Position numbers and translations under genes: made by a program
Assembly: GCA_052390515.1 (NCBI GenBank)
Contig: JBQTGV010000086.1
Span: 1 to 46,643, forward strand
Reading direction: 5' to 3'
From: Candidatus Eiseniibacteriota bacterium
GTDB lineage: Bacteria > ARS69
DNA: 46,643 bases
Part shown: positions 2,187-24,634 of the stretch, piece by piece
Numbering within the stretch: position 1 is the first letter of the stretch
Layout of the letters: every line of letters starts with the position of its first letter
The notes under the pieces: generated by a model
Seen by the model: only the letters and a program-made list of their open reading frames with translations
What the model was told of the DNA's origin: nothing
Database searches by the model: none

Positions 2187-4912
2187 ACGCGCTGGCCGGT
2201 GCTTCCCGCGTCCGTCGTCAGGCGCACGAAGTACGTGCCCGACGACACGCGCCGCCCGCGGGAATCGAGCAGATCCCAGGTCCGCTCGAACCGACCGGCC
2301 TGCTCGCTCGGGCTGCTGATCAGCGTCCGCACGCAGCGGCCCATCACGTCGAAGACCCGCAGCTGCACCGGCCCGGTCCGCGACATCTGGTAGGCCAGAC
2401 GGCTCTCGCTCCGCGCCGGGTTGGCGCCGCTCAACCAGAGCCGGTCGGCAGCCCCACCGGCGAAGAACGGCGCGCCGACGAAGTCGAGCGGCGTCGAGTT
2501 GGGGTCGTCCGGATCCGCGCCCACGTCGAGCTCGTCGCGGTCCCGGAAGCCGTCCTCGTCGCGATCGATGCCCAGGCGGACCTGCTCGCCGAGGAGAACC
2601 GCCGTGAACGTGATCTCCGTCCCCGGACCGGCACCGGCCACGAGCTGGGTCAGGGACAGCGGCGGCTCCGTGGCCCGGTCCGGCGCCCAGTTACCGGGAT
2701 TCCGCACCCACCCTCGGTTCTCGCCGTTGCCGTCGCGGCCCTTGGCGATCAACCCGATCCGATTCTGGGCGGCCAGCTGCACCAACGAGTCCACGCGCGC
2801 CTGACCGTTCGTACCGTCCATCGTGAACTGCGCGCCGACCGCGGGATGCGTCGTGCCGGAGCCGAACGCGTGCATGAACGCCTCCACGTCGATCCGCTCG
2901 GCGTCCGTGTTGAACGTGAAGACCGGGAAGTCCGTGAAGTACGAGAACAGATCCGCGAAGGCGCCGTCGTGCAGGAAGCCGAAGCCGCGGACGGTCGTGC
3001 CCGCCTCCGGCGTGTAGCGCGTCTTCTCGTGCAGGTTCCTGAGGTGGGGGATGACCATGTCCTGGTTCCCCTCGACGTTGACCGGCGTGATGATCGTGCC
3101 GCGCTTGCCGGTGGGCAGGAAGTGGCAGTCCACGCAATCGGTCACGCCGATCTGGGCGAAGAGCGCACCGGTCTGGAACAGATTGAACCCGTTCTGCGCG
3201 TTGCCGCCGTTGAAGCTCACCGCCGGGAACGAGTTGTCCAGGTTCCGCATGGGGCTGGGCGAGGTCAGCATGCTGGTCACGAAGCTCTGCAGGTTGCTCA
3301 TCTGCCCCGGCGTGGGCTCGCCCGCCCTTCCCTGCACGTCGGTGAACGCGCCGCTGAAGTCCGAGAACGTCGCGAAGTCCCCTCGCCAGTGGAACGGGGC
3401 GCTGTTGGCGACGCCCTTGAGCGTCTGCGTCACCATCGGGCCCTTGATGGGATGCCAGCCGTTGAGCGCCCCGCCCCCCTGCGGAGGAGGAGGCGTGAAC
3501 GCGCCCACCGGACTTCCCAGCTCCCACGCGATTCCGTCGTTGTCGCCGAAGAGGTGGCAGCTCGCGCACGCCAGGTCGCCGTGCGCGGACATTCCCTCGG
3601 CATCGTACAAGAGCGGCCGCCCGCTCAGGATCGCCGTGGAGGTCGGATCGAACCCGAGGCCGAGCGTGAACGACGAGTCGTCGGAGAGATCCACGACCGA
3701 GATGTTGCTGTCGAAGCGGTTCACGACGTAGAGCCGGTTGCGTTGCTCGTCCAGCACAACGCCCGTGGGCCCGCCTCCGACCGGGATCCTCCGCGTGACG
3801 TTCCCCGCGGCGTCCAGGACGCCCACCTTGTCGGAACCCAGCGCCGCGACGTATATCTCCGCGCCGTTCGACGAGACGTCCATGTCCAGCGGGAGAGCCA
3901 GGCTCAAGGAACGCTCCACCGGATCACCGGGCGCGGCATAATTGATGTGCGGGTTGAGGTGGATCGGCGTGACGACTCCCGTGCCCGGCACGATCGTCGT
4001 GACGCGGTTCTTGGAGAACTTGCCCACGAGGTTCGGCTCGAAACGGATCTCGTTCGACGCTTCCAGGTTGGTCACGTAGAGCGTGCCCGTCACCGGGTGC
4101 ACCAGGATGTTGAACAGGTTCGTTCCCACGCCCTTGTACGCGGTGCCGACGGACAGCGTGGACGTGTTGATCGGGATGACGTCGTGGTCGAGCAGCGTGT
4201 ACGGGACGCCCCACGTCTGCCCGAGCTCGTCCTTCCAGGACGTGCCGTCGTGTCTCACGATCAGTCCTACTGCGGGCTCGGGGCCGAGCAGCGGATCCAT
4301 CGGCGGGTTCGGCGCCGGCCTGGCGCCGAAGTTCAGGACGCGCTGCCAGGAGACGATCGTCGTCTTGTTCTGGCTGTCCAGCGCCGCCACGTACACCGTC
4401 GAGCCGTCGGGCGAGAGAGCCAGCGACCGCGGCTCGCTGTGATTCAGCGCGATGTTCGTGGGCGGCAGCGTCAGGTCGGTCAGGTCGTAGACCGCGATCT
4501 TGTCATCCTGCGACACGCAGACGAACGCGCGGTTCTGCGATTCCACGAACTGCACGTCGGTCGGCTCGTCCCCGGGAAGCAGCGTGCGCACGATGCTCAT
4601 CGTGTTCACGTCGATGATGTTGACGGCGTCCGAGACGTGGCCGATGACCCACACTTCGTCGTTGTTGCGCGCGCGCACGGTGACGGGCTCGTAGCCCACG
4701 GCCACCTTGCCGATTCGGACGGGCACAGGACCGGTGAGATCGAAGACGGCCAGCTCGTGATCGGCGGTGTGGACGACGAACAGCCTCGTCCCGTCGGGGG
4801 AAAGCTCGATCGGGTGGACGTGGGCGCTCTCGAACTGCTGCGTGGTGACGGCAACGCTCACGGACGGCAACACAAAGCACAGAGACGCAATGAACTGCCA
4901 GAATCGATTCAT
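2171..4912 (-). CDS. Secreted YVTN beta-propeller + di-heme c (cytochrome c peroxidase/MauG-like) protein with Ca-binding DxDxDG motif and FlgD-Ig C-terminal domain
   Basis: Start reassigned to ATG 4912 (MNRFWQFIASLCFVLPSVSVA, GGAG RBS). SPDG..LYV propeller repeats, CxxCH motifs CASCH and CVDCH, DRDEDGFRD, and tail NPA..VFDVMGR.VRTL..WD..D..GR.V.SGTYFVRL. Confidence 0.85.
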   Translation of the reverse strand: MNRFWQFIASLCFVLPSVSVAVTTQQFESAHVHPIELSPDGTRLFVVHTADHELAVFDLTGPVPVRIGKVAVGYEPVTVRARNNDEVWVIGHVSDAVNIIDVNTMSIVRTLLPGDEPTDVQFVESQNRAFVCVSQDDKIAVYDLTDLTLPPTNIALNHSEPRSLALSPDGSTVYVAALDSQNKTTIVSWQRVLNFGARPAPNPPMDPLLGPEPAVGLIVRHDGTSWKDELGQTWGVPYTLLDHDVIPINTSTLSVGTAYKGVGTNLFNILVHPVTGTLYVTNLEASNEIRFEPNLVGKFSKNRVTTIVPGTGVVTPIHLNPHINYAAPGDPVERSLSLALPLDMDVSSNGAEIYVAALGSDKVGVLDAAGNVTRRIPVGGGPTGVVLDEQRNRLYVVNRFDSNISVVDLSDDSSFTLGLGFDPTSTAILSGRPLLYDAEGMSAHGDLACASCHLFGDNDGIAWELGSPVGAFTPPPPQGGGALNGWHPIKGPMVTQTLKGVANSAPFHWRGDFATFSDFSGAFTDVQGRAGEPTPGQMSNLQSFVTSMLTSPSPMRNLDNSFPAVSFNGGNAQNGFNLFQTGALFAQIGVTDCVDCHFLPTGKRGTIITPVNVEGNQDMVIPHLRNLHEKTRYTPEAGTTVRGFGFLHDGAFADLFSYFTDFPVFTFNTDAERIDVEAFMHAFGSGTTHPAVGAQFTMDGTNGQARVDSLVQLAAQNRIGLIAKGRDGNGENRGWVRNPGNWAPDRATEPPLSLTQLVAGAGPGTEITFTAVLLGEQVRLGIDRDEDGFRDRDELDVGADPDDPNSTPLDFVGAPFFAGGAADRLWLSGANPARSESRLAYQMSRTGPVQLRVFDVMGRCVRTLISSPSEQAGRFERTWDLLDSRGRRVSSGTYFVRLTTDAGSTGQRVVVLR

Positions 4913-5251
4913 CGAGGACGCTCCGGGGGGAGCCATCAGCGCATGCCCGTCGGTCGAACGACGCGGGGGGCGGGGGCGCAGTAATCTCCTGGAACTGTAC
5001 CACAACGCGATGACTCGGCGCGGAGAGTCGTGTTCGGGGGGCACGGCCCGTGGCTCGCCGCGACCGGCGCCGCCTCGCGCGGGCGGCGGAAACCGGTCGG
5101 CCCACCCGCCGCCTGGCCGCAACCTCATGCCATCGCGCCGGTTCCCGGATCGGGAACGCCGGCGCGGGCCGAGGCGGCACCGGAAGCGAGACCCGCCCGG
5201 GCACCGCGGCGGCCACCTAAAGACCCGGCGCCGGGCCGCCGAACAGCTCTC

Positions 5252-5659
5252 ATGGAGTGCTTCTACCACGCGGGCGCGCCGGCGGTCGGCTCGTGCCGCT
5301 CCTGCCTCAAGGGCCTGTGCCGGAGCTGCGCCGTCGAGCTCGAGGGCGGGCTCGCCTGTCCGGATCGCTGCGAAGAGCAGGTGCGCGCGATCGTCGCCGC
5401 GCTGCAACAGAGCGCCCGCTACCAGAGCGTCTCGACCGGCCTGCTGAGGTCCGCTCGCGGTCTGTGGTCCGGGCTCACCGTCGTCGCCCTGTTCGTCGGC
5501 CTCTTCGTCGCGGTGTGGGGCCTGAGCCTCCCGGCCTTCCGCGAGATCGCCGCGCTCGGTATTCCCTTCCTGGCGCTCGCGCTGATCACGGCACGCCTGG
5601 CGCGGAACACGCGCCGGGCCGACGCGCCCTCCGAGCGGGAGCACGCACCCGCCGCCTGA
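5252..5659 (+). CDS. B-box-type zinc-finger membrane protein
   Basis: ATG 5252: MECFYHAGAPAVGSCRSCLKGLCRSC (CxxH-CxxC-CxxC), followed by two hydrophobic helices. Confidence 0.75.
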   Translation: MECFYHAGAPAVGSCRSCLKGLCRSCAVELEGGLACPDRCEEQVRAIVAALQQSARYQSVSTGLLRSARGLWSGLTVVALFVGLFVAVWGLSLPAFREIAALGIPFLALALITARLARNTRRADAPSEREHAPAA

Positions 5660-5794
5660 CGCAGTGGCGTCTCCTTGTGGGTCGAGTTGCCTCGGTGGCG
5701 AGGGCGGGCGTAAGCTCAAGACAGCGCGCCCCCATCATCGCCCGCGATCGCCCTTCGCCGACGATCGCCGCTTTCCAGCCTGTGGAGAACGCCC

Positions 5795-8434
5795 ATGCGA
5801 GCCCGTCACGCCGCCTTCCTCGCCCCGGTCGTCGTGGCCGCGGCGTTCCTGCTTCGCCCCGACCCCCCGGAGGACCCGGCCCCGGCGGCCCCGCGCTTCC
5901 TGTACGACCCCGACTCCATCTCGGAGGAGGAGAAGAAGAGCGAAGGCCACGCGTGGGAGATGTTCGAGTGGTGGTACTCCCAGCGCGCGTACCCGAACGA
6001 GCTGATCCCGAAGGACGCGTACTGGAAGGCCTGGACCCACAAGCAGACGAACCTCCCCGCGCCGGACGACCTGCTGCGCTCGGCCACCTGGTCTTCCCTC
6101 GGACCCGACAACGTCGGCGGGCGGATGCTCGCCGTGGCCGTCGACCCCACCGACGTGAGCCGCGTCTGGGCGGGTGCGGCGAGCGGGGGACTGTGGCTCT
6201 CGACCACCGGGGGCGAAGGGGCGAACGCGTGGACGCGCGTCGAGACCGGGTTTCCTTCGCTCTCGGTGAGCGCCATCGTGCTCGATCCCGCGGATCCCGA
6301 CGTGATGTACATCGGCACCGGCGAGATCAGCCGCTACGTACGCCCGCTGGTCGGCACGCCGGGCGCCCGGGCCAGCTACGGCCTCGGCGTGCTCAAATCC
6401 ACCGACGGCGGCGTCACCTGGAACACGACCGGCCTCACCTGGACGTTCGACCAGACCCGCGCGGTCCTCGCCATGAAGGCCGGCCCCCTCGGCACGAACG
6501 TCGTCTGGGCCGCCACGAGCGAGGGGCTCTACAAGACGACCGACGCCGGAGCCAACTGGACGCTGTCCCACGCCGAGCTCATGGCCATGGACGTGGTAGT
6601 GGACCCGACGAACGCGAACGTCGTCTACGTGTCGCACGGTCAGATCGGTGTGCCGCCCGACGGGATCGCCGGCATCTACAAGACGACGAACGGAGGCACG
6701 AGCTGGACGCTGCTCGGCGGCGGCCTCCCCGCGACCGACTTCGGCCGGACCTCCCTGACCATCTCAGCCAACGGGCAGACGCTCTACGCCGGCGTGGCCA
6801 GCGCGACGGGCCACAACATCGTCGGCCTCTACCGCACGACGAACGGCGGCACCACCTGGACGAGCGTGAATTCCACCAACTTCACCGGCGGCCAGGCCTG
6901 GTACGACAACGTCGTCGCGGTTTCGCCCACGGACAACAACCTGGTGATCGCCGCCGGGCTCGACGTCTACCGCACGACCAACGGCGGCTCGAACCTGTCC
7001 CAGGTGGCGTTCTGGTGGGCAGGATACGGCGGAGTGATCCCCAACGGCGGCGACGAGGGCCCATCCGACTACGTGCACGCCGACCAGCACGCCATCACGT
7101 TCGAGCCGGGGAATCCGCAGACGGTCTACATCGGCTGCGACGGCGGCGTCTTCAAGTCGACCGATGGCGGGCAGAACTGGGACGGAAAGAACGGCGGACT
7201 GCAGACCACGCAGTTCTACGCCGGGTTCGCCGACGCGCCGACGTTCCCGCTGGCGCTCGGCGGGCTCCAGGACAACGGCACGCTGCTCTACACCGGCAGC
7301 CCGTCCTGGGACAAGACGTTCGGCGGCGACGGCGGCTGGTGCGCCATCGACCCGACGGACGAGCAGACGATGTACGAGGAGTACGTCTACTTGAACATGC
7401 ACAAGACGACGGACGGCGGCGCCAGCTGGAACGAGATCCACTCCCTTTCATCCGGATCCGCGAACTTCATCGCGCCGTTCGTGCTGGCGGAGTCCGCCCC
7501 GAACGTGATCTACGGCGGGATGCTCGCCGTGGAGAAGACCACGAACGGCGGGAACTCCTGGTTCTATCCCGACGGCGACTCGAACTGGAACGGCACGCAG
7601 GTGGCGACGATCGGAGTCTCACCGACCGATGCAGACCGGGTGATCGCAGGCACGGGCAACTCCGGGACGAGCCCGACGATGGAGGTGCGCTGGACGACGG
7701 ACGGCGGCGCGAACTGGAACACGGTGGCGGCCGGCCAGCTCCCCGTGCGCTACCCCACGGACTTCCACTACGACCGGAACGACGCGGACCGCATCTGGGC
7801 CACGTTCTCCGGCTATGGTACCGGCCACGTCTGGGAGTCCAGCGACGCCGGCGCCACCTGGACGGATCGCTCGGCGAACCTGCCCGACATCCCCATGCAG
7901 TGCGTCGCGCTGGACGAGGACCATCCCGGCCACGTCTACGTGGGAACGGACCTCGGCACCTATCAGTCGACGGACGGCGGCGCGTCGTGGCAGGACTTCA
8001 ACTCGGGCATGCCCATCGCCATGATCCTCGACTTGGTGGTGCACGGCCCGACCCGCACCATGCGCGCGGCCACCTTCGGCAACGGCATCTGGGAAGTGGG
8101 GCTGCCCGAGCCACAGATCACCGCCGCGCCGATCGCGGGGGGCGAAAGCGAAGGTCCGCTGCTCCGTCTCGGTGCCGGCCAGCCCAATCCCTTCCGCGAC
8201 CGCACCACCATCGAGTTCGCGCTCGACCGGCCCGGCGAGGTGCAGCTCACCGTGCACGACGCCGCGGGACGCCGGGTCCGCACGCTGGTCGACGGCCGGC
8301 GGGATGCAGGAACCGCCACCGCGGCCTGGGACGGGAGAGACGAGAGCGGGCAGCCGGTGGCCGCGGGCGTCTACTTCCTCACGCTGGAGGGCGCGGGAGG
8401 TTCGCGCTCCGGCAAGATCACGCTGCTCCGTTGA
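5795..8434 (+). CDS. BNR/Asp-box beta-propeller (VPS10/GH74-like) protein with FlgD-Ig C-terminal domain
   Basis: Many (S/T)xDGGxxW Asp-boxes, the WxSLGPxNVGGR start typical of this family, N-terminal hydrophobic segment, and tail PNPFRDRTTIEF...WDGRDESG..VAAGVYF. Confidence 0.9.
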   Translation: MRARHAAFLAPVVVAAAFLLRPDPPEDPAPAAPRFLYDPDSISEEEKKSEGHAWEMFEWWYSQRAYPNELIPKDAYWKAWTHKQTNLPAPDDLLRSATWSSLGPDNVGGRMLAVAVDPTDVSRVWAGAASGGLWLSTTGGEGANAWTRVETGFPSLSVSAIVLDPADPDVMYIGTGEISRYVRPLVGTPGARASYGLGVLKSTDGGVTWNTTGLTWTFDQTRAVLAMKAGPLGTNVVWAATSEGLYKTTDAGANWTLSHAELMAMDVVVDPTNANVVYVSHGQIGVPPDGIAGIYKTTNGGTSWTLLGGGLPATDFGRTSLTISANGQTLYAGVASATGHNIVGLYRTTNGGTTWTSVNSTNFTGGQAWYDNVVAVSPTDNNLVIAAGLDVYRTTNGGSNLSQVAFWWAGYGGVIPNGGDEGPSDYVHADQHAITFEPGNPQTVYIGCDGGVFKSTDGGQNWDGKNGGLQTTQFYAGFADAPTFPLALGGLQDNGTLLYTGSPSWDKTFGGDGGWCAIDPTDEQTMYEEYVYLNMHKTTDGGASWNEIHSLSSGSANFIAPFVLAESAPNVIYGGMLAVEKTTNGGNSWFYPDGDSNWNGTQVATIGVSPTDADRVIAGTGNSGTSPTMEVRWTTDGGANWNTVAAGQLPVRYPTDFHYDRNDADRIWATFSGYGTGHVWESSDAGATWTDRSANLPDIPMQCVALDEDHPGHVYVGTDLGTYQSTDGGASWQDFNSGMPIAMILDLVVHGPTRTMRAATFGNGIWEVGLPEPQITAAPIAGGESEGPLLRLGAGQPNPFRDRTTIEFALDRPGEVQLTVHDAAGRRVRTLVDGRRDAGTATAAWDGRDESGQPVAAGVYFLTLEGAGGSRSGKITLLR

Positions 8435-8700
8435 GGAAGCTCCTCGAGAGGGTCGCCCGCGAAGTGCGCATCGCCGGGCTCGTGCTCCGCGACCCGCGCA
8501 CGCCGTGGGCGTCCCGCATCCTGCTGGGTTGCTGCGTCGCGTACTTCCTCTCGCCCATCGACCTGATCCCGGACTTCATCCCGGTGCTCGGACAGCTCGA
8601 CGACGCCGTCATCGTCCCCCTGCTGCTCTTCGCCGGTCTGGCGCTCGTACCGGCCGAGGTGATCCGCGAGCATCGTGCGGGCGAGGGAGCCCGCCCTTGA
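8431..8700 (+). CDS. YkvA/DUF1232 family small membrane protein
   Basis: TTG start overlaps the upstream TGA (TTGA); signature YFLSPIDLIPDFIPVLGQLDD. Confidence 0.9.
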   Translation: MRKLLERVAREVRIAGLVLRDPRTPWASRILLGCCVAYFLSPIDLIPDFIPVLGQLDDAVIVPLLLFAGLALVPAEVIREHRAGEGARP

Positions 8701-11120
8701 CCGAGGGTCCGACGGTGGGCAGGTCGGTCGCCGCCGGCATGCCGGAACGAATCGGGCCGTACCGGATCCTGGAAGAGCTCGGCTCCGGCGGCATGGGTGT
8801 CGTCTACCTCGCCGATCAGGAACACCCCGTCCGCCGGCGCGTGGCGGTCAAGGTCATCAAGCTCGGGCTCGACACGAAGGAAGTCATCGCGCGCTTCGAG
8901 TCGGAGCGGCAGGCCTTGGCGATGATGAGCCACCCGAACATCGCCCGCGTGCTCGAGGCGGGGACGACCGCGGAAGGCCGCCCCTATTTCGTCATGGAGC
9001 ACGTGCCGGGCGTGCCCATCACCGACTACTGCGACCGACACCGCCTCTCGATGAAGGAGCGGCTCGACCTCTTCGTCCCGGTCTGCCAGGCCATCCACCA
9101 CGCCCACCAGAAGGCCATCATCCACCGCGACATCAAGCCCTCCAACGTGCTCGTCATGCTCCTCGACGGCGTGCCCGTGCCGAAGGTCATCGACTTCGGG
9201 GTGGCGAAGGCCCTGGACCGCAAGCTGACCGAGAAGACCGTGTTCACCGAGCAGGGCCGGCTCATCGGGACGCCCGCATACATGAGCCCGGAGCAGGCCG
9301 AGATGACCGGGCTCAACATCGACACCACGACCGACGTCTACTCGCTCGGCGTGCTGCTCTACGAGCTTCTCGTCGGGGAGCTCCCCTTCGACACGAAGGC
9401 CCTGCTGGAGGGCGGCTGGGACGCGCTGCACCGGGTGATCCGGGAGGTGGATCCGCCGAAGCCGAGCACGCGGGTCAGCTCCCTCGGGGAGAAGGCAGGT
9501 GCCGTGGCGCTGCAGCGGCGGATGGAGCCGGCGCAGCTCGAGCACCAACTGCGGCGCGAGCTCGACTGGATCACCATGCGCGCGATGGAGAAGGACCGGA
9601 CCCGGCGATACGAGTCGGCCGCCGCGCTCGCGCAGGACATCGCCCGCTACCTGAACGACGAGCCGGTGCTCGCCGGCCCTCCGAGCACGGCCTACCGTGT
9701 CGGCAAGTTCGTCAAGCGCCACCGAGCGGCGCTGCTCGTCTCCGCCGTCGTCCTGGCGAGCCTGGTCTTCGCCACGGTGGAGTCGACGCGACAGCGCCTC
9801 GTGGCCGAGCGCGCGCTGGAAGAGTCGGAGGCGGTGACCGCGTTCCTGTCGAACATGCTCTCGGCGGTCGACCCGGCCAAGCGAGGCCGCGAGGTCACCG
9901 TGCGGGAGATCCTCGACGAGGCCGCCACGAACATCGACCGGCAGTTCGGGGGCAAGCCGCTGGTTCGCTCGAGGCTCATGGCCGCGATGGGAGGCGCGTA
10001 CCTGCAGCTCGGCCACTTCGACGAGGCGCGGCCGCTGCTCCAGGAAGCGCTCTCCATACGGGGCGAGCGCGCGCTGGCCGAGAACGAGCTGCTCGTCGCC
10101 GAGACCCTGCACCTGCTCGGCAACCTCGATCTCGAGACGGCCGACTATGCCTCGTCGAAGCGGTGCCTGGAGGCGGCCCTGGCGATTCGAGAGAAGAGGC
10201 TCGGCCCCGAGCACCCCGAGTTCGCGCGGACGTTGAACGACCTCGGACTGCTGCAGCGCACCACCGGCGACCGCGCCGAGGCACGCGCTCTCTTCGAGAG
10301 GGCGCTGGCCGTCCGTGAGAAGACGCTCGGCCCGGATCACCCCGACGTGGCCAAGACGCTGAACGACCTCGCGGGCCTCCTCTACATGATGCGCGATTAC
10401 GCCGGCGCCCGGCCGCTCTACGAACGCGCCAGCGCCATCCAGGAGAAGGCCCTCGGGCCGGAGCACACCCACCTGGCGGCGACGCTGAGCAACTACGCCA
10501 CGCTGCTGGGCGACACCGGAGACTTGGAGACCGCGCGCGCCGTGCACGAGCGGGCGCTGGCTATCGAGCGGAAGGCGCTGGGCGAAGAGCATCCCGACGT
10601 CGCCAACTCTCTGACCAGCCTCGCCATCCTGCGGCAGAAGGCAGAGGACTTCGCCGGCGCGAAGGTCCTCTACGAGCAGGCGCTGGCCATCACCGAGAAG
10701 GCCTTCGGGCCCGAGCACCCCGACGTCTCCATGAATCTCAACAACCTCGCGGCGTGTCTCATGGATCTCGGAGACAACGACGGGGCGCGGCCGCTCTTCG
10801 AGCGCGCGCTGTCCATCCGCGAGAAGTCATTCGGTCCCGAGCACTTCGCTGTGGCGCAGAGCCTCAACAATCTCGCCTACCTGAACGCGGTCACGGGCGA
10901 CTACGCCGCCGCCGTGCCGCTGCTCGAGCGCGCCATGGCCGTCGAGGAGAAGGTTCTCGGTCCGGAGGACGTGCACGTGGCCGACACGGCCTCGCGTCTG
11001 GCGGAGGTGCTGCGGCTGCTCGGCGACGAGGCGGCCGCCGCGCGGTACGAGGCCCGCGCGAAGCGGGTGGCGGCGCAAGCCGCGCAGACCGCGCCGGCCT
11101 CGCCTCAGAACGGCGGGTAG
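8697..11120 (+). CDS. Hanks-type Ser/Thr protein kinase with one TM helix and C-terminal 42-aa TPR repeats
   Basis: LGSGGMGVVY, VAVKVI, HRDIKPSN, DFG, GTPAYMSPEQ; TM AALLVSAVVLASLVFA; about 7-8 LGPEHP..A..LN.LA repeats. Start is TTG 8697 (TTGA overlap) or ATG 8739. Confidence 0.92.
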   Translation: MTEGPTVGRSVAAGMPERIGPYRILEELGSGGMGVVYLADQEHPVRRRVAVKVIKLGLDTKEVIARFESERQALAMMSHPNIARVLEAGTTAEGRPYFVMEHVPGVPITDYCDRHRLSMKERLDLFVPVCQAIHHAHQKAIIHRDIKPSNVLVMLLDGVPVPKVIDFGVAKALDRKLTEKTVFTEQGRLIGTPAYMSPEQAEMTGLNIDTTTDVYSLGVLLYELLVGELPFDTKALLEGGWDALHRVIREVDPPKPSTRVSSLGEKAGAVALQRRMEPAQLEHQLRRELDWITMRAMEKDRTRRYESAAALAQDIARYLNDEPVLAGPPSTAYRVGKFVKRHRAALLVSAVVLASLVFATVESTRQRLVAERALEESEAVTAFLSNMLSAVDPAKRGREVTVREILDEAATNIDRQFGGKPLVRSRLMAAMGGAYLQLGHFDEARPLLQEALSIRGERALAENELLVAETLHLLGNLDLETADYASSKRCLEAALAIREKRLGPEHPEFARTLNDLGLLQRTTGDRAEARALFERALAVREKTLGPDHPDVAKTLNDLAGLLYMMRDYAGARPLYERASAIQEKALGPEHTHLAATLSNYATLLGDTGDLETARAVHERALAIERKALGEEHPDVANSLTSLAILRQKAEDFAGAKVLYEQALAITEKAFGPEHPDVSMNLNNLAACLMDLGDNDGARPLFERALSIREKSFGPEHFAVAQSLNNLAYLNAVTGDYAAAVPLLERAMAVEEKVLGPEDVHVADTASRLAEVLRLLGDEAAAARYEARAKRVAAQAAQTAPASPQNGG

Positions 11121-14100
11121 CTCTCCGGGAAGCGGACGACGAGCAGGCGCTTCTCCCGCTCCACCCAGCTCGTCCAGCCGAGCGTCTCCAGCAGCCGCAG
11201 CCGCTGTTCGAAGAGCGTCCGATCCGGAGCCGCCTCGTCGATGCGCGCGTTCAGCACTTCCAGCGCCTTGGCCGGGCGCCCGCGTCTCCGCTCGTGCTCC
11301 ACCGCCACGACGGCGGCCTCGCCCTTCGCGGGGTCGGTCCAGCGCGCCACTTCCGCGTACGCCGCCGCGATCTCCGCGTCCGCTCCGGCGTTCCCGACCA
11401 GCGCCTCGACCTTGCGGCGGAGCGCCTCGACCAGCGCGTCCCGGCGCTTCTCCGCGCCCTCGCGTGCCGCCTTCGCCTCCTCGTTCTCCGGATCGGCGCG
11501 CTCGCCCAGCAGCTCCGCGAGGTCCGCGCCCGCGGCTGCGTCCACCACCTCGTCGCACGCCTTCACCACGGCCTTCGCGTCCGGCTCTTCCTTCTCCGCG
11601 AGGTAGCGCATGCGCTCCACGAGCAGAGGCAGCGTGCGCCCGCGCTCCTTCAGCAGGACTCGCGACTGCGCCTCGAAGTCCTCGTCGCGGCCGTCCTTGC
11701 GGAGCTTCGCGAGGTGATCGACCTCGACCTGGAGCAGCTCCTCGGCGAGCTCGTCCGCCGTGCTCGCCTCGACCGCCTCGGGCACCCCGTCCGCCTCCGT
11801 CGACTCGTCCTCGACCCGGGCCGACGCGAGTCGAACGGTCAGCGGCCAGCCGGAGGGGCGGTCGCCCGCGGCGGCGGCTTCACTGCCCTCTGGACCGAAG
11901 CGCAGCGTGCCGACCAGCAGGTCCCCGGGTGCGGCTCCCTTCGGGATGCTTTTCGCCGGCGGCGGGGCGATCCACATCGCCGCCGTCTGTCCCCGCGCGA
12001 GCTTCGTCTCGCCGACGTCGTGCCCGCCCTCGAGCGCGCCGTCCGGATCGTTCAGCACCCGCAGCGCGACCGCGTCATCCAGCGTGCGGTCCAGCGCGAG
12101 CGGCATGTTGCGCAGTCCCCGCAGCGCGGCCTCGTCGGTGCTGCGCACGTGGAAGCGAAGCGTGTACTTCCCCTTCCCGAGGGACACCGGAGCGTCCTTC
12201 GGTCCGTTCGCGGCGAGACGCTTCCCCTCGTCGTGGATCTGCCAGAGCATCGATTGCCACGACTGCCAGATCTCGTCGGACTCGAGCACGGCGGCGCGCG
12301 GGCGAACCTTCGCGTCGTCGTCGAGCTCGAACTCGTACGTGAGCAGCGCCTCCCACACCTGGCGTCCCTGCGGAAGCAGGTCGCGGGAGCCGTCCAGCGC
12401 GCGCACTTCCGCCTCCTCGGGCAGCAGCGTCTTGCGCAGCACCTTCGCCTCGGCTTTCGGCGCGAGGGTCTCCGGACGGAGCGACGCCCGGACGAGCAGC
12501 GGGCGGCTGAGCTCGGTGCCGCCGTCCACGTCGACGCGCGCCTCGTCCGGCACGAGTCCGTGGAAAGTGAGCTCGAAGTCAGCCTCGCCGGGTCCGAGGT
12601 TGGACCAGTTCTGAGCGAGACACAGCTCGAGCGTGCGGCCGCCGGCCACGGCGAAGCTCTTCACGTACCTCCCGCCCTGGTCGAGCCACTGCGTCTCCTC
12701 CGTGTTCCACTCCGCGTAGCTCGATCCGGGAACGAGCTGTACGGCGTGCGCCACGATCTGCCGCGGCGTCTCCGGGTTCTCCGTTCGGATCACGAGGTCG
12801 GCCCACGTCGCGCCGTCAGGAACGGCGAAGAAGAAGCGACGGATCTGTCCCGGCTCGAACGCGAGGGTCTTCTGCCACGAGGGATCCGCGTCCGGCACCT
12901 TCTCCGAGCGGATCACGGTGACGGGCACGCGGAACAGCGGACCGCGCCCGGGATCGCCCGTGTCGGTGCCGCGCACTTCGGCGAAGTGCACGCCGGGCGG
13001 GAGGCTGCGCGGGTCCACCTTGATCTTGAACGAGCGGGTGCCCGGCACGACCACGAACATCCCCGGCGCGTCGACCCACGGAGCGCTCGACTCCAGCCGA
13101 AGGTGCCGCTCGAAGGAGATGCGCGCGCGGTTGCTGTCGGCGTCGGCGAAGACCGCGGCGACCTCGACCAGGAGATCGTGCGCCCGCGACGACTCCTCCG
13201 GCTCGCGCAGGTGGACGCCGCGAGCGCCGTCCCGCGCCGGAACGTTCACCTCGAAGCGGACGCCGTGCGGCGCGTGCGGCCGGTGGGCGCGCAGCGCCTC
13301 CCAGGCCCGGTCGAACCGGGCGAGCCCCCGGCCGAGCGTCCACGGATCGAATCCCTCCGGCTGCTCCGCGGTGCTCTCCAGCGCTCGGCGGATGTCGTGC
13401 GGCGAGGTGGCGAGTCCCTCGGCCTTCGCGCCGGAAAGCAGACAGGCGATCCCGCCGCACACGCTCGGCGCCGCCATGGACGTCCCGTTGAGCAGCGAGG
13501 TCGGCTTCAGCTCCCAGTTCGGCACCGGCGAGAACGCCCCGCCGGGGGCGCTCAGCGCGACGCCGAGATCCCCGTCGGCCGTCGGCCCCCGCGACGACCA
13601 CGTGTAGTGCGTGTCGGGGAGCTTCTCCCGGATCGAGTACTGCGCCGTCATCATGGAGCCCGAGAGGTACGCGCCGATCCCCATCAGGTGCGACGAGGTG
13701 CCGCCGGCGCTGCCCACGGTGGAGAGCGCCGGGCCGTTGTTGCCGGCGGAGAGCACGAACACGACGCCGTGCTCGTTCACGATCTCCTGGTAGAGCTCGA
13801 TCATGTGGCCCTCGTCGGGCGAGGGCGTCGACCCGCCGAAGCTCATGTTGATGAGCGCGCAGCTGTCGGCCAGCGCGGTGATGAGGCCGCGCACCGGGCC
13901 GGTGTTGGTGGAGGAGGCGCCGAGCCTCGTGTCCCCGATCTTCACGCAGACGAGCTGCGCTCCCGGCGCCATGCCGTCGAGCGCGCGGTTCTCGGGATGG
14001 TGGGCGGCCACGATCCCGGCGACGTGCGTCCCGTGCGACCCGCAGTCGGTGACGATCGAGAGCAGGTTGCCGTCCGCGTAGATGTTCACCGCGTAGTTGA

Positions 14101-14842
14101 GCAGGCTCTCCTCGTCGAACGTCGCCCACTCCCTGGCCACGCGGTAGTTCGCCATCGCCTTCTCGTCGGCGAGGTCTCCGTCCTCGTCGGTGTCGATCAC
14201 CGCGCGCCAGTGCTCGCCGTCGTGGAAGACGACGCAGTCGTACACAGGGCCAGGATCCTGGGCCTTCCCGGCGAGAGTGCGCAGCACGTCCACGCGCGCG
14301 GCCAGCTCCTCGCGCGTCATGCGCTCGGACTCGGTCGGCTCCGGATGCTCGTCGTCGAACGCGTCCAGCGCGCGCCGCGCCTCCGCGAGAAGCGGACCGT
14401 GCGCCTCGTCGAGCTGCTCCTTCCGGCGCTCCTTCATGCGCGTGACGAGGCCGACGGGCCACAGCTCGAAGGCCGGCTTGACGCCGAGATGGAAGTCGCC
14501 CGAGGGGCAGGACAGCGCGCCGACGTCGAGCGTTCGCCCGGAGGGGCCGACGAGCTCGCCGCCGTCCGCGCGGCGCACGGTCCTCGTGGAGACGTCGCCC
14601 GATCCCGAGCCGTCGACCAGATCGACGATCTTCGGCTTGCCGTCGGTGGTCACCTGCAGGCCGGGCGCGCCGGGGTCGACCCCGGTATCGAAGATGGCGA
14701 CCACGACTCCGCGCCCGTCGTAGGTCGGGTGCTCCTCCAGGAAGCGCGTCATGCCGGTCTCGCTCTTGGGCAGGAGATCGGCGGTCGGGAATGCCGTCTC
14801 CGCGGCGGCGGCGAAGACGGCGGCGACGAGAAGAACGTGCAT
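11105..14842 (-). CDS. Tripeptidyl-peptidase II (TPPII)-like S8 subtilase, 1245 aa
   Basis: ATG 14842 with GGAAGG upstream. LLPKSETG...YDGRGV..AIFDTGVDPGAPGLQVTTDGKPKIVD, DPGPVYDC..HDGE.WRA, HGTHVAGI, SAGNNGP.LSTVG, YTWSSRGP and NGTSM are colinear with eukaryotic TPP2, including the large Asp-His insert. Confidence 0.92.
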   Translation of the reverse strand: MHVLLVAAVFAAAAETAFPTADLLPKSETGMTRFLEEHPTYDGRGVVVAIFDTGVDPGAPGLQVTTDGKPKIVDLVDGSGSGDVSTRTVRRADGGELVGPSGRTLDVGALSCPSGDFHLGVKPAFELWPVGLVTRMKERRKEQLDEAHGPLLAEARRALDAFDDEHPEPTESERMTREELAARVDVLRTLAGKAQDPGPVYDCVVFHDGEHWRAVIDTDEDGDLADEKAMANYRVAREWATFDEESLLNYAVNIYADGNLLSIVTDCGSHGTHVAGIVAAHHPENRALDGMAPGAQLVCVKIGDTRLGASSTNTGPVRGLITALADSCALINMSFGGSTPSPDEGHMIELYQEIVNEHGVVFVLSAGNNGPALSTVGSAGGTSSHLMGIGAYLSGSMMTAQYSIREKLPDTHYTWSSRGPTADGDLGVALSAPGGAFSPVPNWELKPTSLLNGTSMAAPSVCGGIACLLSGAKAEGLATSPHDIRRALESTAEQPEGFDPWTLGRGLARFDRAWEALRAHRPHAPHGVRFEVNVPARDGARGVHLREPEESSRAHDLLVEVAAVFADADSNRARISFERHLRLESSAPWVDAPGMFVVVPGTRSFKIKVDPRSLPPGVHFAEVRGTDTGDPGRGPLFRVPVTVIRSEKVPDADPSWQKTLAFEPGQIRRFFFAVPDGATWADLVIRTENPETPRQIVAHAVQLVPGSSYAEWNTEETQWLDQGGRYVKSFAVAGGRTLELCLAQNWSNLGPGEADFELTFHGLVPDEARVDVDGGTELSRPLLVRASLRPETLAPKAEAKVLRKTLLPEEAEVRALDGSRDLLPQGRQVWEALLTYEFELDDDAKVRPRAAVLESDEIWQSWQSMLWQIHDEGKRLAANGPKDAPVSLGKGKYTLRFHVRSTDEAALRGLRNMPLALDRTLDDAVALRVLNDPDGALEGGHDVGETKLARGQTAAMWIAPPPAKSIPKGAAPGDLLVGTLRFGPEGSEAAAAGDRPSGWPLTVRLASARVEDESTEADGVPEAVEASTADELAEELLQVEVDHLAKLRKDGRDEDFEAQSRVLLKERGRTLPLLVERMRYLAEKEEPDAKAVVKACDEVVDAAAGADLAELLGERADPENEEAKAAREGAEKRRDALVEALRRKVEALVGNAGADAEIAAAYAEVARWTDPAKGEAAVVAVEHERRRGRPAKALEVLNARIDEAAPDRTLFEQRLRLLETLGWTSWVEREKRLLVVRFPESYPPF

Positions 14843-14915
14843 GGGCGTCCCTTCCGGAAGATGCTGCGGGTCAGGGGGCGCGCAGGATACCATGCGCCCA
14901 ACAGGAGGGGCGAAG

Positions 14916-15947
14916 ATGGGAGCTCTCGGAACGATGACGCGAACGGCGCTGGCGGCGGCCGTGGCGCTGGCGGCGGCCGTGACGCTGCCGATGGCCGTGG
15001 CGCTGCCGATGGCGCCGTCCGTCGCGCGCGCGGACGAACCGGTCGCGACGTTCTCGATCGTCGGATACGACCCCGCCACCGGCGAGATCGGCGTCGCCGT
15101 GCAGTCGAAGTTCTTCGCCGTGGGCGCCGTCGTGCCCTGGGCGAAGGGTGGGGTCGGTGCCGTGGCCACGCAGGCTTTCGCCAACACGACGTTCGGCCCG
15201 AGAGGTCTGGAACTGCTCTCGAAGGGCATGCTCCCGGAGGAGGCGCTGGCGGCGCTGCTCGAGGGGGACACCGGCCGCGAGAGCCGACAGGTCGGCATCG
15301 TGGACGCGCAGGGACGCGCCGCGGCGCACACCGGCACGGAGTGTCAGGCGTGGGCCGGCCACGTGACCGGCGAGCACTTCACCGCCCAGGGCAACATCCT
15401 CGCCGGTGAGCCGGTCGTCGCAGCGATGGCCGCCGCCTTCCGCGAGACTCCGGGAATGCTCGGCGAGAAGCTGATGCGCGCGATCGAAGCCGGCCAGGAC
15501 GCCGGCGGCGACTCCCGTGGCATGCAGTCCGCCGCCATTCTGATCGCGAAGGCCGGCGCCGGCTACGGCGGCTTCGACGACGTCTACTGCGACCTGCGCG
15601 TCGACGATCATGCGGATCCGATCCGCGAGCTGCGCCGCATCTTCGACCTGTGGAAGATCCAGGCGCTGATCCTCGAAGGGTACCGGCACGTGGAGGCCGG
15701 CGACTTCGCCGCCGCGATCGCCGCGGGCGAAGAAGCGGTGCGCCTGGACGACGCGACCGGCGAGCCGCACTACCACCTCGCCTGCTACCTGAGCCGTGCA
15801 GGCCGCGCGAACGACGCCATCGACATGCTCGCCGAGGCGGTGAAGCGCGATCCCGCGCTCGGCCCGCGCGCCGCGGACGATCCCGACCTGAAGCCGCGCG
15901 CCGACGACCCGCGCTTCCAGGAGCTGACCCGGCCGCCGAGCCGGTGA
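14916..15947 (+). CDS. DUF1028 family Ntn-hydrolase-like protein with signal peptide and C-terminal TPR
   Basis: AGGAGG RBS before ATG 14916. TFSIVGYDP.TGEIGVAVQSKFFAVGAVVP, ATQA, QGNILAG, GGDSRG.QSA, DLRVDDH; C-terminal TPR with YHLACYL. Confidence 0.9.
   Translation: MGALGTMTRTALAAAVALAAAVTLPMAVALPMAPSVARADEPVATFSIVGYDPATGEIGVAVQSKFFAVGAVVPWAKGGVGAVATQAFANTTFGPRGLELLSKGMLPEEALAALLEGDTGRESRQVGIVDAQGRAAAHTGTECQAWAGHVTGEHFTAQGNILAGEPVVAAMAAAFRETPGMLGEKLMRAIEAGQDAGGDSRGMQSAAILIAKAGAGYGGFDDVYCDLRVDDHADPIRELRRIFDLWKIQALILEGYRHVEAGDFAAAIAAGEEAVRLDDATGEPHYHLACYLSRAGRANDAIDMLAEAVKRDPALGPRAADDPDLKPRADDPRFQELTRPPSR
14946..15017 (+). repeat. 4 x 18-bp in-frame tandem repeat in signal peptide
   Basis: gcgctggcggcggccgtg x2, acgctgccgatggccgtg, gcgctgccgatggcgccg (ALAAAV ALAAAV TLPMAV ALPMAP). 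Confidence 0.85.
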
Positions 15948-17420: not shown

Positions 17421-18191
17421 TCACAGCCGCGCTACAGCGTCCCCGGGGATCCATCCGCGGAGGTCTCCGGGCAGGGAGATCTCCGTCCACTCGCCGCGCT
17501 CGCCTTCCACGACGACTTCCGCGCCCTCGTGCAGCACGAAGGCGGTCTCGAACGACGCACCCGGTCCGTTGCGCACGGTGGACTCGCGGGCCAGCACCAC
17601 GGCCTCGTCCACCCGCCCTGCGCGCCGCTCGATCGTCCACGCGCCGGCGAGCCCGAGCACCCACAACGAGAGCAGCGTCACGAAGGACCTGCGCCACGCA
17701 CCCGATCCGCGCGCGCCGAGCCGCCACGCGCACCCGGCGATCCCGGCCAGCACCCACAGCGCCATGGGCACGAGCGCCGCTTCGCCCGGCGTGACGCGGT
17801 CCAGCCATCCCTCCACCGGGCGGTCCGTCTTCGCGTCCTCCTCGACGCGGTCCAACGCGAGGAAGCGCGCGTAGTCCAGGTTCGCGCGGATGTCCTCGTC
17901 CCTCGGCGCCAGCGAGTGCGCGCGCCGGTAGTGATAGACCGCGGGACCGAGGCGGCCGGCCTTGAACCATGCGTTCGCCAGGTTGTACTCCACCGCGGGA
18001 TCCTCGATCCCGGACGCCACCACCTCACCGAACGCGGCCGCGGCGCCTTCGTAGTCACCGGATTCGTAGAGACGCATGCCGCTGTCGAAGGCGGCGCGCG
18101 CGGCCTCGTCCTTCGCCGCGGTCGGCAAGGCCGCGCCGAGCAGCGCGAGGATCGTCGCACCCGCGAGAGCCGCTCTCCTCGCCGCGATCAT
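17421..18191 (-). CDS. batE: BatE-like TPR + TM + SH3 protein
   Basis: ATG 18191 overlaps the batD stop. YNLANAWFK.G.LG.A.YHYRRA..LAPRD.DI.ANL, TM helices, SH3-like GPG..F...F.LHEG...GWI. Confidence 0.85.
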   Translation of the reverse strand: MIAARRAALAGATILALLGAALPTAAKDEAARAAFDSGMRLYESGDYEGAAAAFGEVVASGIEDPAVEYNLANAWFKAGRLGPAVYHYRRAHSLAPRDEDIRANLDYARFLALDRVEEDAKTDRPVEGWLDRVTPGEAALVPMALWVLAGIAGCAWRLGARGSGAWRRSFVTLLSLWVLGLAGAWTIERRAGRVDEAVVLARESTVRNGPGASFETAFVLHEGAEVVVEGERGEWTEISLPGDLRGWIPGDAVARL

Positions 18192-20056
18192 CGCCGCTCC
18201 ATCGCGCCAATCCAGGCCTGGGCGCGCTCGAGCAGGGCGCCCGCGCCGGCCGCGTCGCTGCCGAGGGGGGAGAAGCGCGCCGAGTCGCAGGACTCGAGCA
18301 TGGTGAAGAGCGCCGCGACCTCGTCCTCCTCGATTCCGTGCCCGAGAAGCCCGCGGCGAACTTCGCCCTCGTCCAGGTTCGCGGCCGCGAGATGCAGGCG
18401 GTCGGCCACGTAGCCGCGGAGCGAGGCCGACAGCTCCGCGAAGAACGGCGTGAGATCCGCTCCGCCGAGCGAGACCTTGGCGGCGTCGAGCCGCTTGGCG
18501 GCCAGCTTCCCGGCGCCGCGCCGCCTCGCCCAGCGCACGTCGCTTCTGAGCCGATCGCGGTGGCGGCGCATGACCGCCGACCCGGCGAGCGCGAGCACGG
18601 GCACGGCGTGCACCAGCAGGAACGCCGGCGTCGAGAACGGACCGCCGCGCTCGCGACGGAACGACGACGGCGCCGGCTTCACGTAGCGGATGTCTCGCTG
18701 GCGAAGACGAACCCGCTCCTTCGCGACCGTGGGGTCGTCGCCGCGGGCCAGCGCCTCGTCGAGGTCCGAGGCCTCCACCCGGAGCGGGATGGGCTCGGAC
18801 GCGACCGTGACGTAGCGGCCCGCCTGCGGATCGAAGACGGACAGCCGCACCGGCGGGATCTGCACGTCGCCGCCGGTCGAGGGCACGAGGACGTACTCCC
18901 ACGTCTTGGTCCCGTGGATCGTTCCGGATCGGACCTCGGCGGACTCCTTCGACGACGACTCGTACATCTTGAAGTCGTGGAGCACGGACACGTCCGGCGC
19001 GGGAACCACCTTCACGTTGCCCTCGCCGGACAGCGTGATCTCGAGCGTGACCGCTTCGCCGGCCTTCACGCTGGTGCGGTCGACCTTCGCGGAGAGCTGG
19101 AACTTGCCGACGGCGCCGGAGAAGTCCTGGGGCTTGCCCTCGGCGGGGAGCGCCTGTACGTCGATGACGATCGGTTGGGTCCGCAGCACGACTTCGCGGC
19201 CGGAGCGAAGCATCCCGAAGGGATCGTTGCCGAAGATGTCGAATGGGTCCCGGGCTCGGCTGCGCGCGCGGTCCTCGACGGTGGCGCGCAGCGTCGCCGG
19301 ACCGATCTCGTAGCGGCCTGGCGCGGTCGGGAAGAGAGCGGTGCGCACGCGCTCGGCGATGTAGCGGCGCCCCTCGAACGTCACTTCCTCCGGCTGCGTC
19401 ACGTCCAGCTCCTCGGCCCAGAAGCCGGTCCACGCCGGCCGCTCGTAGCGGGTGCCCTCCAGCACCCGGACACGCCGTAGGAACGTGAACGAGTACGAGA
19501 TCTGCTGGTTCACCCAGGGCGTGTCGTCGTCGATGCGGCCGAGCACGATGAGGTCGGTGCCGCCGTCGCTCCCTTCCTCGTCGTCGCCGAGCCTGCGCGG
19601 CGTGTTCGCGGTGGAGCCGGCCGGCTCGACTCGAACCTGCACGGTGTTGCTCGTGGCCTGCTCGTCGCCGCGCGTCACCGTCACCGGACCGATCGTGTAC
19701 GTGCCTTCCGCGTCGGCGATCAGCACGTACTGCGCCGTGACGCTGGACGTGGCACGGCCGTTCACGTACTGGAACCCCTGCGAGTCGTACCGGCTGACCG
19801 CGCGCAGGTTCTCCACCGCCGGCAGCTCCGGGCGGGGCACCGAGCCCATGCCGTCGTGGCGCACATCCACCTGCACCGTGAACTGTTCGCCGACCGAGAC
19901 CGCATCCCGCGACGCGGACAAGCTCACCTCGAGCGCCACGGCCGGTGCGGCGGCGAGCACGGCTGCCAGCAGGGCCGCGGCCGGCGTGGCGGCCAACGCG
20001 GCCGCCAGCTGGACGGCTCCGGGCCCGAAGCCCGACACTCGGGCGCTACCAGTCAT
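18188..20056 (-). CDS. batD: BatD family protein
   Basis: Ig-like BatD repeats (VGEQF, F.GAVG.F, SGEGN, FDP..G.Y), C-terminal TM, position in operon. Start is ATG 20056 or GTG 20065. Confidence 0.88.
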   Translation of the reverse strand: MTGSARVSGFGPGAVQLAAALAATPAAALLAAVLAAAPAVALEVSLSASRDAVSVGEQFTVQVDVRHDGMGSVPRPELPAVENLRAVSRYDSQGFQYVNGRATSSVTAQYVLIADAEGTYTIGPVTVTRGDEQATSNTVQVRVEPAGSTANTPRRLGDDEEGSDGGTDLIVLGRIDDDTPWVNQQISYSFTFLRRVRVLEGTRYERPAWTGFWAEELDVTQPEEVTFEGRRYIAERVRTALFPTAPGRYEIGPATLRATVEDRARSRARDPFDIFGNDPFGMLRSGREVVLRTQPIVIDVQALPAEGKPQDFSGAVGKFQLSAKVDRTSVKAGEAVTLEITLSGEGNVKVVPAPDVSVLHDFKMYESSSKESAEVRSGTIHGTKTWEYVLVPSTGGDVQIPPVRLSVFDPQAGRYVTVASEPIPLRVEASDLDEALARGDDPTVAKERVRLRQRDIRYVKPAPSSFRRERGGPFSTPAFLLVHAVPVLALAGSAVMRRHRDRLRSDVRWARRRGAGKLAAKRLDAAKVSLGGADLTPFFAELSASLRGYVADRLHLAAANLDEGEVRRGLLGHGIEEDEVAALFTMLESCDSARFSPLGSDAAGAGALLERAQAWIGAMERR

Positions 20057-20780
20057 TGCCGTCACCCTCGTCCTGCTCCTCTTCGTCCTGAAGCTGCTGC
20101 AGGACCTTCAACTCGTCGGACTGGATGGCGTTGAGCAGGCGCTCCGCGTCCTCCCGGGTCATGCGGCCGAGCTCCTGCTGCTGTTCCTGCGGCTGCTCTT
20201 CCTGCTCGCCCTGATCCGACGGAGTCTCCTCCTGATCGGACTGCTCCTGATCCTGTTGCTGCTCTTGCTGCTGCCCCTGCTCCCCTTCCTCGTCCTCCTG
20301 CTGCTCCTCCTGTTGCTGCTGCTGCTGCTGCTGCTGCAGACGCCTCAGCGCGATCTCCAGGTTCCGGCGAGCGTCGGCATCGGCGGGATCGAGATCCAGG
20401 CTCTGCAGGTAGGCCTCGACGGCGGGCTCGAACTGCTCGGCTTCGAGCAGCGTGTTGCCGAGATTGTAGAGCGCGTCGGCCGCCAGCGGCGAGTCCTCCG
20501 CGGCCGCGGCCCCGAGGAAGGCGTCGCGCGCCTCCTCGACCCGTCCTTCCTGCGAGAGAACGATCCCGCGGTTGAAGTCGGGGATCGCGCTTCCCGGACT
20601 GACGCGCGCCGCCTCGCCGTAGTGGCCGAGCGCTTCCTCGGCCGCCGCTTTCTCCTTCGCCTTGCGGTTTCCCTTCTCCACGTGCTCGTGGAACGGATCG
20701 AAGAAGCTCCACCCGACCAGGAAGGGGAGGACCGCGGCGAGCACGATGAGGACACTTCGCCGGGGCGGCGATTCTCTCAT
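20046..20780 (-). CDS. batC: BatC-like TPR protein with Q/E-rich tail
   Basis: YNLGNTL...A..AY..SL.L.P.D.DA..NLE.A, poly-Q, M..E.AERLLNAI, ending in DW. Confidence 0.88.
   Translation of the reverse strand: MRESPPRRSVLIVLAAVLPFLVGWSFFDPFHEHVEKGNRKAKEKAAAEEALGHYGEAARVSPGSAIPDFNRGIVLSQEGRVEEARDAFLGAAAAEDSPLAADALYNLGNTLLEAEQFEPAVEAYLQSLDLDPADADARRNLEIALRRLQQQQQQQQQEEQQEDEEGEQGQQQEQQQDQEQSDQEETPSDQGEQEEQPQEQQQELGRMTREDAERLLNAIQSDELKVLQQLQDEEEQDEGDGNDW

Positions 20781-23752: not shown

Positions 23753-23756
<4 letters not shown>
22791..23756 (-). CDS. Bat-operon single-TM membrane protein (DUF4381-like)
   Basis: Ig-like N-terminus, TM helix, LRRYLE.RYG.PALESTT, ADLVKFAK. Confidence 0.85.

Positions 23757-24634
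<878 letters not shown>

Follow-up and report, generated by a model that had tools for sequence, protein, structure and literature searches.

Tripeptidyl-peptidase II (TPPII) is known from textbooks as a giant cytosolic protease of eukaryotes. In the eukaryotic enzyme, two glutamates are reported to act as the ruler that fixes the release of tripeptides (Chuang et al. 2010; Lindas et al. 2008; Peters et al. 2011). Bacterial TPPII was mentioned in the searched literature by PMC6713707 (2019) only. Citing Rockel et al. 2012, this paper names TPPII in two planctomycetes (Blastopirellula marina, Rubinisphaera brasiliensis) and explains it, with low support, by transfer from a eukaryote to a bacterium. 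Here, we analyzed a gene for a TPPII-family S8 (subtilase) peptidase on contig JBQTGV010000086.1 of a Candidatus Eiseniibacteriota bacterium (GenBank assembly GCA_052390515.1), the window being the whole stretch of 46,643 nucleotides (nt). Taken as a whole, and with a probability of roughly 0.6, we read its product, in the following called the query, as a catalytically intact TPPII of a bacterial branch that is probably exported and probably without strict tripeptidyl specificity.

Compared with eukaryotic TPPII (Drosophila 3LXU, human TPP2, MEROPS S8A), the query revealed the same domain order over the whole core, including an insert of about 200 residues and the tail, as well as the same Asp/His/Asn/Ser set and the same fold (template-modelling (TM) score 0.83), but an identity of only 28–40%. 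It differs in two further respects: eukaryotic TPPII starts in cytosolic style and carries the two glutamates, whereas the query has a hydrophobic signal-like extension and Ser311/Gly337.

A complete TPPII-type protein

Based on its Pfam domains, the match to the best solved relative, the predicted fold, the catalytic residues and the Asp-His (DH) insert, the gene product is a complete TPPII-type protein, distinct from an ordinary subtilase. Peptidase_S8 and the Ig-like-1, GBD and TPPII domains all score far over the Pfam cut-offs (Table 1). A search against all Protein Data Bank (PDB) sequences identified Drosophila TPPII (3lxu) as the best solved relative (expect value (E) 3.5e-169, residues 16–982), with a weak second stretch at residues 1089–1242, while the next-best chain was an ordinary S8 peptidase (E 4.9e-12). 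An AlphaFold2 model covering residues 46–1245, with a 56-sequence alignment as input, reached a mean predicted local distance difference test score (pLDDT) of 90.6 and a predicted TM score (pTM) of 0.85, and Foldseek matched it to 3lxu with E 3.2e-80 and TM 0.83/0.82 over 1289 alignment columns, the second-ranked entry showing a TMq of 0.24 only. In this model, protein residues 1029–1237 (model residues 984–1192) form 11 predicted helices, and they are followed by a C-terminal tail, LGW..W...RFP..YPPF, that is common to most inspected bacterial and eukaryote-side sequences. The Pfam family TPPII_C gave no match in the query at E<=0.01, though relatives match it. NCBIfam yielded seven weak subtilase matches, all far under the cut-offs, and a search of the ESM Atlas returned solely TPPII and subtilase clusters.

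Exported S8 peptidases with extra beta-sandwich domains, namely Vpr (8jmw), the streptococcal C5a peptidase ScpA and SpyCEP, were the next-best structural matches. They share only the catalytic domain with the query (TMq <=0.24; E 2.9e-18 or weaker) and have neither the DH insert nor the TPPII central domains nor the helical domain.

The initial annotation of this stretch, made from the letters alone, had called the product a full-length eukaryote-type TPPII with a DH insert, a central beta region and a helical C-terminus, and the analysis agrees with it in all these parts: there are four Pfam domains along with the 3lxu match and the TM score given above, the insert follows the Drosophila insert over 217 residues, three Pfam TPPII beta domains lie over their cut-offs, and the C-terminus is helical in the model. 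All TPP2 blocks that it quoted occur in the translation (DTGVDPGAPGLQVTTDGKPKIVD, DPGPVYDC, LNYAVNIYADGNLLSIVT, KIGDTRL, YSIREKLPDTHYTWSSRGP and APGGAFSPVPNWEL). A grouping with ordinary bacterial subtilases did not emerge; the TPPII central and C-terminal domains are present and the query groups with TPPII sequences.

A large bacterial branch of TPPII

The same annotation had held that only sparse bacterial homologs of TPPII exist, a view that is outdated given the sequence collections of today. In a word-indexed protein search, 2427 of 7999 scored candidates reached E<=1e-10, and the best 120 matches (query included) were full-length proteins of 1052–1404 amino acids (aa), all with the four Pfam domains. 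Their source names read 'tripeptidyl-peptidase-2' (from the Joint Genome Institute (JGI), in many cases) or 'S8 family serine peptidase', and the hosts named among these 120 were Planctomycetes/Planctomycetota, Phycisphaerae, Verrucomicrobiota, Limisphaerales or simply 'bacterium'. When residues 16–1215 were searched exhaustively against 50%-identity representatives, 10980 proteins reached E<=0.001, among them 3070 with <=1e-10 and 1066 with <=1e-30. The host phylum, a small one in GTDB, was sampled with 12 species genomes belonging to one family; six of them gave a TPPII-domain match, as did five of the seven genomes with at least 90% completeness and at most 5% contamination, and the TPPII proteins of five same-family relatives were 47–70% identical to the query. 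Automated annotation had already given the TPPII name to this large bacterial branch, in which the query is an ordinary representative of the form that lacks the two glutamates.

For a phylogeny, we aligned 150 sequences, comprising 135 of 150 listed representatives (15 with fewer than 1100 or more than 1500 aa were left out) and 15 closer homologues including the query, and calculated a FastTree tree (LG+gamma, 1231 columns). The query and all rows named bacterial, 74 sequences altogether, formed one clan against the other 76 with a Shimodaira-Hasegawa (SH)-like support of 1.0, where the labels 'eukaryote' and 'bacterial' of most rows stand for tree position together with the N-terminal feature described below. 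The same bacterial group appeared with a support of 99 in a posterior mean site frequency (PMSF; LG+C20) tree of a 48-row subset. Of the 135 full-length 50%-identity representatives nearest to the query, 59 belong to this group, which divides into clade A with 42 rows and clade B with 32 rows, the latter including the query (SH-like support 0.97 and 0.853, respectively; PMSF support for clade B 97). The phylogeny with eukaryotic TPP2 thereby placed the query with TPPII, inside the 74-member bacterial clan, and the best eukaryote-side representative was 40% identical to it. Looking up ten eukaryote-side rows gave five informative ones, namely an EukProt transcriptome, Bigelowiella natans, Mesostigma viride, Peronospora and Dissophora ornata. 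Among 20 bacterial-side representatives looked up, one cluster came with a phylum (Verrucomicrobiota), five more with a JGI product name alone and one with a soil-metagenome label, and several bacterial-side representatives sit on contigs of 0.1–1.9 Mb.

Judged from this alignment, the catalytic set of Asp, His, Asn and Ser is intact. The Asp52 column holds Asp in 73/74 bacterial and 68/76 eukaryote-side rows (141/150), the remainder being gaps; counts for the other three residues are given in Table 1. D44 and H272, which we take to be the Drosophila catalytic residues, land on the catalytic Asp and His in the 3lxu alignment. Within the DH insert, Gly258 was invariant in 56/56 aligned sequences and matches a human Gly that is presumably required for complex formation.

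Signal-like N-termini and the two glutamates

Eukaryote-side proteins start a few residues ahead of a conserved FPxxGLLPKxETG core, while the bacterial proteins have 25–70 extra residues before it, which begin basic, continue with a hydrophobic run and are rich in Ala towards the end; in some proteins they end in a Cys-containing, lipobox-like stretch. Using a rule of our own (Met as first residue, 12 or more additional residues, and a hydropathy of 1.9 or higher in the best 10-residue window), signal-like N-termini were detected in 35/42 rows of clade A and 31/32 of clade B, i.e., in 66 of the 74 bacterial rows, as well as in 114 of the 120 nearest homologues, compared with 1/76 eukaryote-side rows. 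A loose lipobox pattern was found in 13/74 bacterial rows. Because 66/74 bacterial but only 1/76 eukaryote-side N-termini are signal-like, export appears to be the norm among bacterial TPPII, and it was in all likelihood the ancestral state of this branch. The searched literature contained no description of signal peptides in bacterial TPPII.

The query itself begins with MHVLLVAAVFAAAA-E, a hydrophobic stretch with a best 10-residue hydropathy window of 3.02 (rule class 'SP_like_noKR') that occupies the place of the homologues' signal peptide directly before the start of the FPxxxLLPK core. The hydrophobic N-terminus resembling a short signal peptide had been correctly described in the initial annotation. 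Its further claim of apparent export stood in part: the signal-like N-termini across the family speak for it, while for this particular protein, whose signal carries no charge and is exceptionally short, export is predicted as probable.

A point missed by the initial annotation is the replacement of both glutamates. The assumed Drosophila positions 312 and 343 land exactly on glutamates in the 3lxu alignment and correspond to Ser311 and Gly337 of the query (Table 1). Column 311 holds Glu in 75/76 eukaryote-side and 41/42 clade A rows and Ser in 32/32 rows of clade B, and column 337 holds Glu in 76/76 and 41/42 rows, respectively, and Gly in 31/32 rows of clade B. As a pair, Glu/Glu is thus present in 75/76 eukaryote-side and 41/42 clade A rows, while clade B shows Ser/Gly in 31/32 and Ser/Glu in 1/32; the 120 nearest homologues comprise 98 Ser/Gly, eight Ser/Glu, seven Glu/Glu and seven other or unreadable pairs. 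Clade A is like the query in being bacterial and full length, and it groups with clade B (support 1.0 and 99), but it resembles the eukaryotes in having Glu337 and, in 41/42 rows, Met-Glu at residues 310–311, where the query's clade B has Ser-Ser, with Gly at 337. A description of the Ser/Gly replacement in bacterial TPPII was likewise not found in the searched literature.

From these columns we infer that clade B would hold the substrate N-terminus differently from classical TPPII. With Ser311 and Gly337 in place of the glutamates and Pro at position 316, the query is probably not a strict tripeptidyl aminopeptidase, and an endopeptidase or a loosely registered exopeptidase appears the better prediction. 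Rather unlikely, but best placed among the alternatives, is an exported enzyme that is still a tripeptidyl or other fixed-register exopeptidase, clade B having rebuilt the anchor with different residues. A Glu at position 316, within a GTGE motif, would suit such an anchor, as it occurs in 18/32 rows of clade B and in none of the 118 other rows (0/42 in clade A, 0/76 on the eukaryote side), and the rest of the active-site region is highly conserved; yet at this position Pro, Ser or Gln is found in the query and its closer relatives, and residues 303–344 of the 150-row alignment showed no further acidic replacement common to the clade. As an observation on these relatives themselves, the Glu of the GTGE motif in clade B members P0019–P0136 may be a relocated substrate anchor.

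Less probable still is a classical TPPII (EC 3.4.14.10) in a bacterial host, i.e., a cytosolic enzyme with a non-working signal that would form a multi-megadalton, two-stranded spindle and remove tripeptides downstream of cytoplasmic ATP-dependent proteases. Architecture, fold and catalytic set are indeed those of Drosophila TPPII, the invariant Gly258 has a human counterpart with an assumed role in complex formation, and, in the query as in its two nearest relatives, the N-terminus is far shorter than other bacterial signals and free of Lys and Arg. This is opposed by the replacement of both glutamates, by an N-terminus with a hydropathy of 3.02 and an AAA-E end at the position where 114 of the 120 nearest homologues carry their signal, and by the full-length signals borne by all relatives at 66–73% identity.

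Several points weigh against an exported TPPII without the ruler. The signal rule is crude and is failed by 7/42 rows of clade A and 1/32 of clade B, although for several of these eight the gene call seems to be truncated. In the query, the roughly 14 residues before the core include about 12 hydrophobic ones but neither Lys nor Arg; since its signal is this short and uncharged, we grade its export as probable and not higher. The two closest relatives (P0004 and P0005; 89% and 84% identity) have equally short, uncharged N-termini, and the sub-lineage formed by these three may have lost export. On the side of specificity, the binding of the free substrate N-terminus by E312/E343 in Drosophila and E305/E331 in human TPPII is a role that we assume, and another acidic residue may reach the S3 pocket region in place of the predicted lost ruler. 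Finally, five same-family genomes show neither of the two neighbours, a DUF1028-TPR gene and a kinase-TPR gene, next to TPPII, and the context therefore gives no functional or operon support.

Preferring nevertheless the exported TPPII of altered specificity, we propose that bacterial TPPII would be made with a Sec-type, sometimes lipoprotein-type, signal peptide placed just before the eukaryotic start point, would act outside the cytoplasm, as the family suggests in the periplasm or at the membrane surface, and would most likely serve nutrition by breaking down oligopeptides that are imported or secreted. The query's 14-residue hydrophobic N-terminus would then be a shortened family signal that probably still directs export, and the enzyme, its N-terminus ruler gone, may cut as an endopeptidase or in a loose register.

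Gene, genomic context and the root of TPPII

The open reading frame (ORF) lies on the minus strand, which the initial annotation had left unstated; it opens with the ATG at 14842 and closes with the stop codon at 11105–11107. An alternative ATG 17 codons upstream was rejected; it would give an acidic, uncharged-to-negative leader and nearly abut the start of the divergent gene. The ATG at 14842 is preferred because a ribosome-binding site precedes it. A scan of positions 10800–15200 for sigma-70-like promoters and intrinsic terminators revealed zero sites of either kind. Coordinates of all features are collected in Table 1.

Table 1. Features of the TPPII gene and its product in the 46,643-nt window; residue numbers refer to the query protein.
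Feature	Position	Strand	Basis
TPPII-family S8 peptidase gene	11105..14842	-	1245 aa and stop; ORF and translation
Ribosome-binding site GGAAGGGA	14848..14855	-	read from sequence; 5 nt ahead of ATG
Signal-peptide-like N-terminus, residues 1-15, MHVLLVAAVFAAAAE	14798..14842	-	hydrophobic, no Lys/Arg; possible cleavage after AAA
Peptidase_S8 subtilase catalytic domain	13361..14716	-	residues 43-494; Pfam E 3.5e-42; same coordinates in genome search
Catalytic Asp52	14687..14689	-	aligns to Drosophila D44; codon checked
DH insert, residues 53-269	14036..14686	-	217 residues between Asp52 and His270; follows Drosophila insert
Catalytic His270	14033..14035	-	H in 150/150 rows; aligns to Drosophila H272; codon checked
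Ser311, at Drosophila E312 position	13910..13912	-	pairwise 3lxu alignment and column counts
Pro316, where clade B often has Glu	13895..13897	-	column counts
Gly337, at Drosophila E343 position	13832..13834	-	3lxu alignment and column counts
Oxyanion-hole Asn368	13739..13741	-	N in 150/150 rows; codon checked
Catalytic Ser455	13478..13480	-	S in 150/150 rows; codon checked
TPPII_Ig-like-1 (PF21223)	12911..13261	-	residues 528-644; Pfam E 9.3e-29, 100.6 bits
TPPII_GBD, galactose-binding-like (PF21316)	12593..12859	-	residues 662-750; E 4.7e-21, 75.3 bits
TPPII central domain (PF12580)	11933..12484	-	residues 787-970; E 2e-37, 129 bits; same coordinates in genome search
C-terminal all-helical domain	11108..11758	-	residues ~1029-1245; predicted helices, 3lxu match, tail motif

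On the 46.6-kb contig, the TPPII gene appears to stand alone among ordinary bacterial genes. The divergent gene upstream (14907–15947, plus strand) has its start only about 64 nt away from that of TPPII; its product combines a DUF1028 domain (E 6.9e-78) with TPR repeats behind it and has a signal-peptide-like N-terminus. On the other side, a convergent gene (8172–11120, plus strand) that shares 16 nt with the 3' end of the TPPII gene codes for a Ser/Thr kinase with a long TPR array (TPR_12 E 1.5e-82, Pkinase E 4.6e-42). Further away, two large beta-propeller/sortilin-type proteins (2171–5719, minus strand, and 5795–8434, plus strand) carry a C-terminal FlgD_ig / Por_Secre_tail-like domain, which suggests that a secretion or sorting system of a type IX-like kind handles them as cargo; the same kind of C-terminal domain was found again near TPPII in relatives. 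A cluster of the Bat/MoxR-vWA type with BatD (E 8.7e-41) and a MoxR-type AAA ATPase (AAA_3 E 3.6e-66) is located at 18188–25671. The source genome (4.27 Mb) revealed 14 Peptidase_S8 matches, several of them in open frames of 850–1600 aa, which fits a protein-degrading lifestyle.

In regard to composition, the guanine-cytosine (GC) content along the TPPII gene (0.715–0.720) lies inside the range over the whole window (0.636–0.724), just as the initial annotation had stated in comparing it with the neighbours, and GC at third codon positions is 0.92. It had also remarked that any transfer would be old; composition, context, distribution and tree depth exclude both contamination and a transfer of recent date. 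The idea that the gene came recently from a eukaryote, or that eukaryotic DNA contaminates the assembly, could appeal to the transfer proposed for two planctomycetes in PMC6713707 and to a quick PMSF tree with the outgroup inside the eukaryotes, but it is hardly credible given GC and third-position GC matching the contig, bacterial genes on both flanks, a gene present in 6/12 genomes of the phylum at 47–70% identity, the position of the query deep in the bacterial clan with the best eukaryote-side sequence only 40% identical, and a monophyly of the eukaryote side that is not rejected and beats the free quick tree (log-likelihood (lnL) +6.8, approximately unbiased test (p-AU) 0.665).

For rooting, the subtilase (S8) domains from the query's own genome served as the outgroup. 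With FastTree (LG; 155 rows, 247 shared catalytic-domain columns), the outgroup was placed inside clade B, and clade A joined the eukaryotes with a support of 0.994. In IQ-TREE PMSF quick trees (486 columns; 52 and 48 rows), the outgroup fell among the eukaryote-side sequences, at nodes of weak support (80–84), and its branch in the PMSF tree was 5.3 changes per site long. Holding the eukaryote side together improved lnL by 6.81 over the free quick tree (p-AU 0.665), and holding clade A and the eukaryote side together did likewise (+6.81, p-AU 0.665). This identical gain under both constraints possibly reflects one best tree or a reused saved state, and the comparison was repeated by constrained IQ-TREE runs. 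Under LG+F+G4, these gave lnL values of -32032.3 for AB|EO, -32036.3 for AE|BO and -32035.8 for BE|AO, with p-AU of 0.696, 0.269 and 0.397, respectively, so that none of the three rootings is separable from the others.

The outgroup rooting depends on the method and the three rootings are inseparable; an ancient single transfer may have occurred, in either direction. One order of events, which we hold to be doubtful, would make TPPII a bacterial invention, beginning as an exported giant subtilase, periplasmic or a lipoprotein, without the ruler (the state of clade B). The common ancestor of clade A and the eukaryotes would then have gained the ruler, and a single ancient transfer into the eukaryotic stem would have gone along with loss of the signal. 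This order matches the rooted FastTree tree (0.994), and its constrained tree is not rejected (p-AU 0.269). The expectation that this gene would inform the origin of TPPII was not borne out, as a single gene adds little given the many bacterial homologues and the root was not placed.

Two features of the bacterial branch were not found in print, as far as the searched literature goes: the near-uniform signal peptides, and the replacement of both ruler glutamates in one sub-clan. A deep, diverse and nearly always signal-bearing bacterial TPPII branch contrasts with the cytosolic eukaryotic protease of the textbooks and bears on the direction of gene movement between the domains. The double-Glu and Glu-less forms are natural variants for asking what sets the three-residue register, and signal-bearing bacterial TPPII would allow one to ask whether the giant assembly forms outside the cytoplasm.

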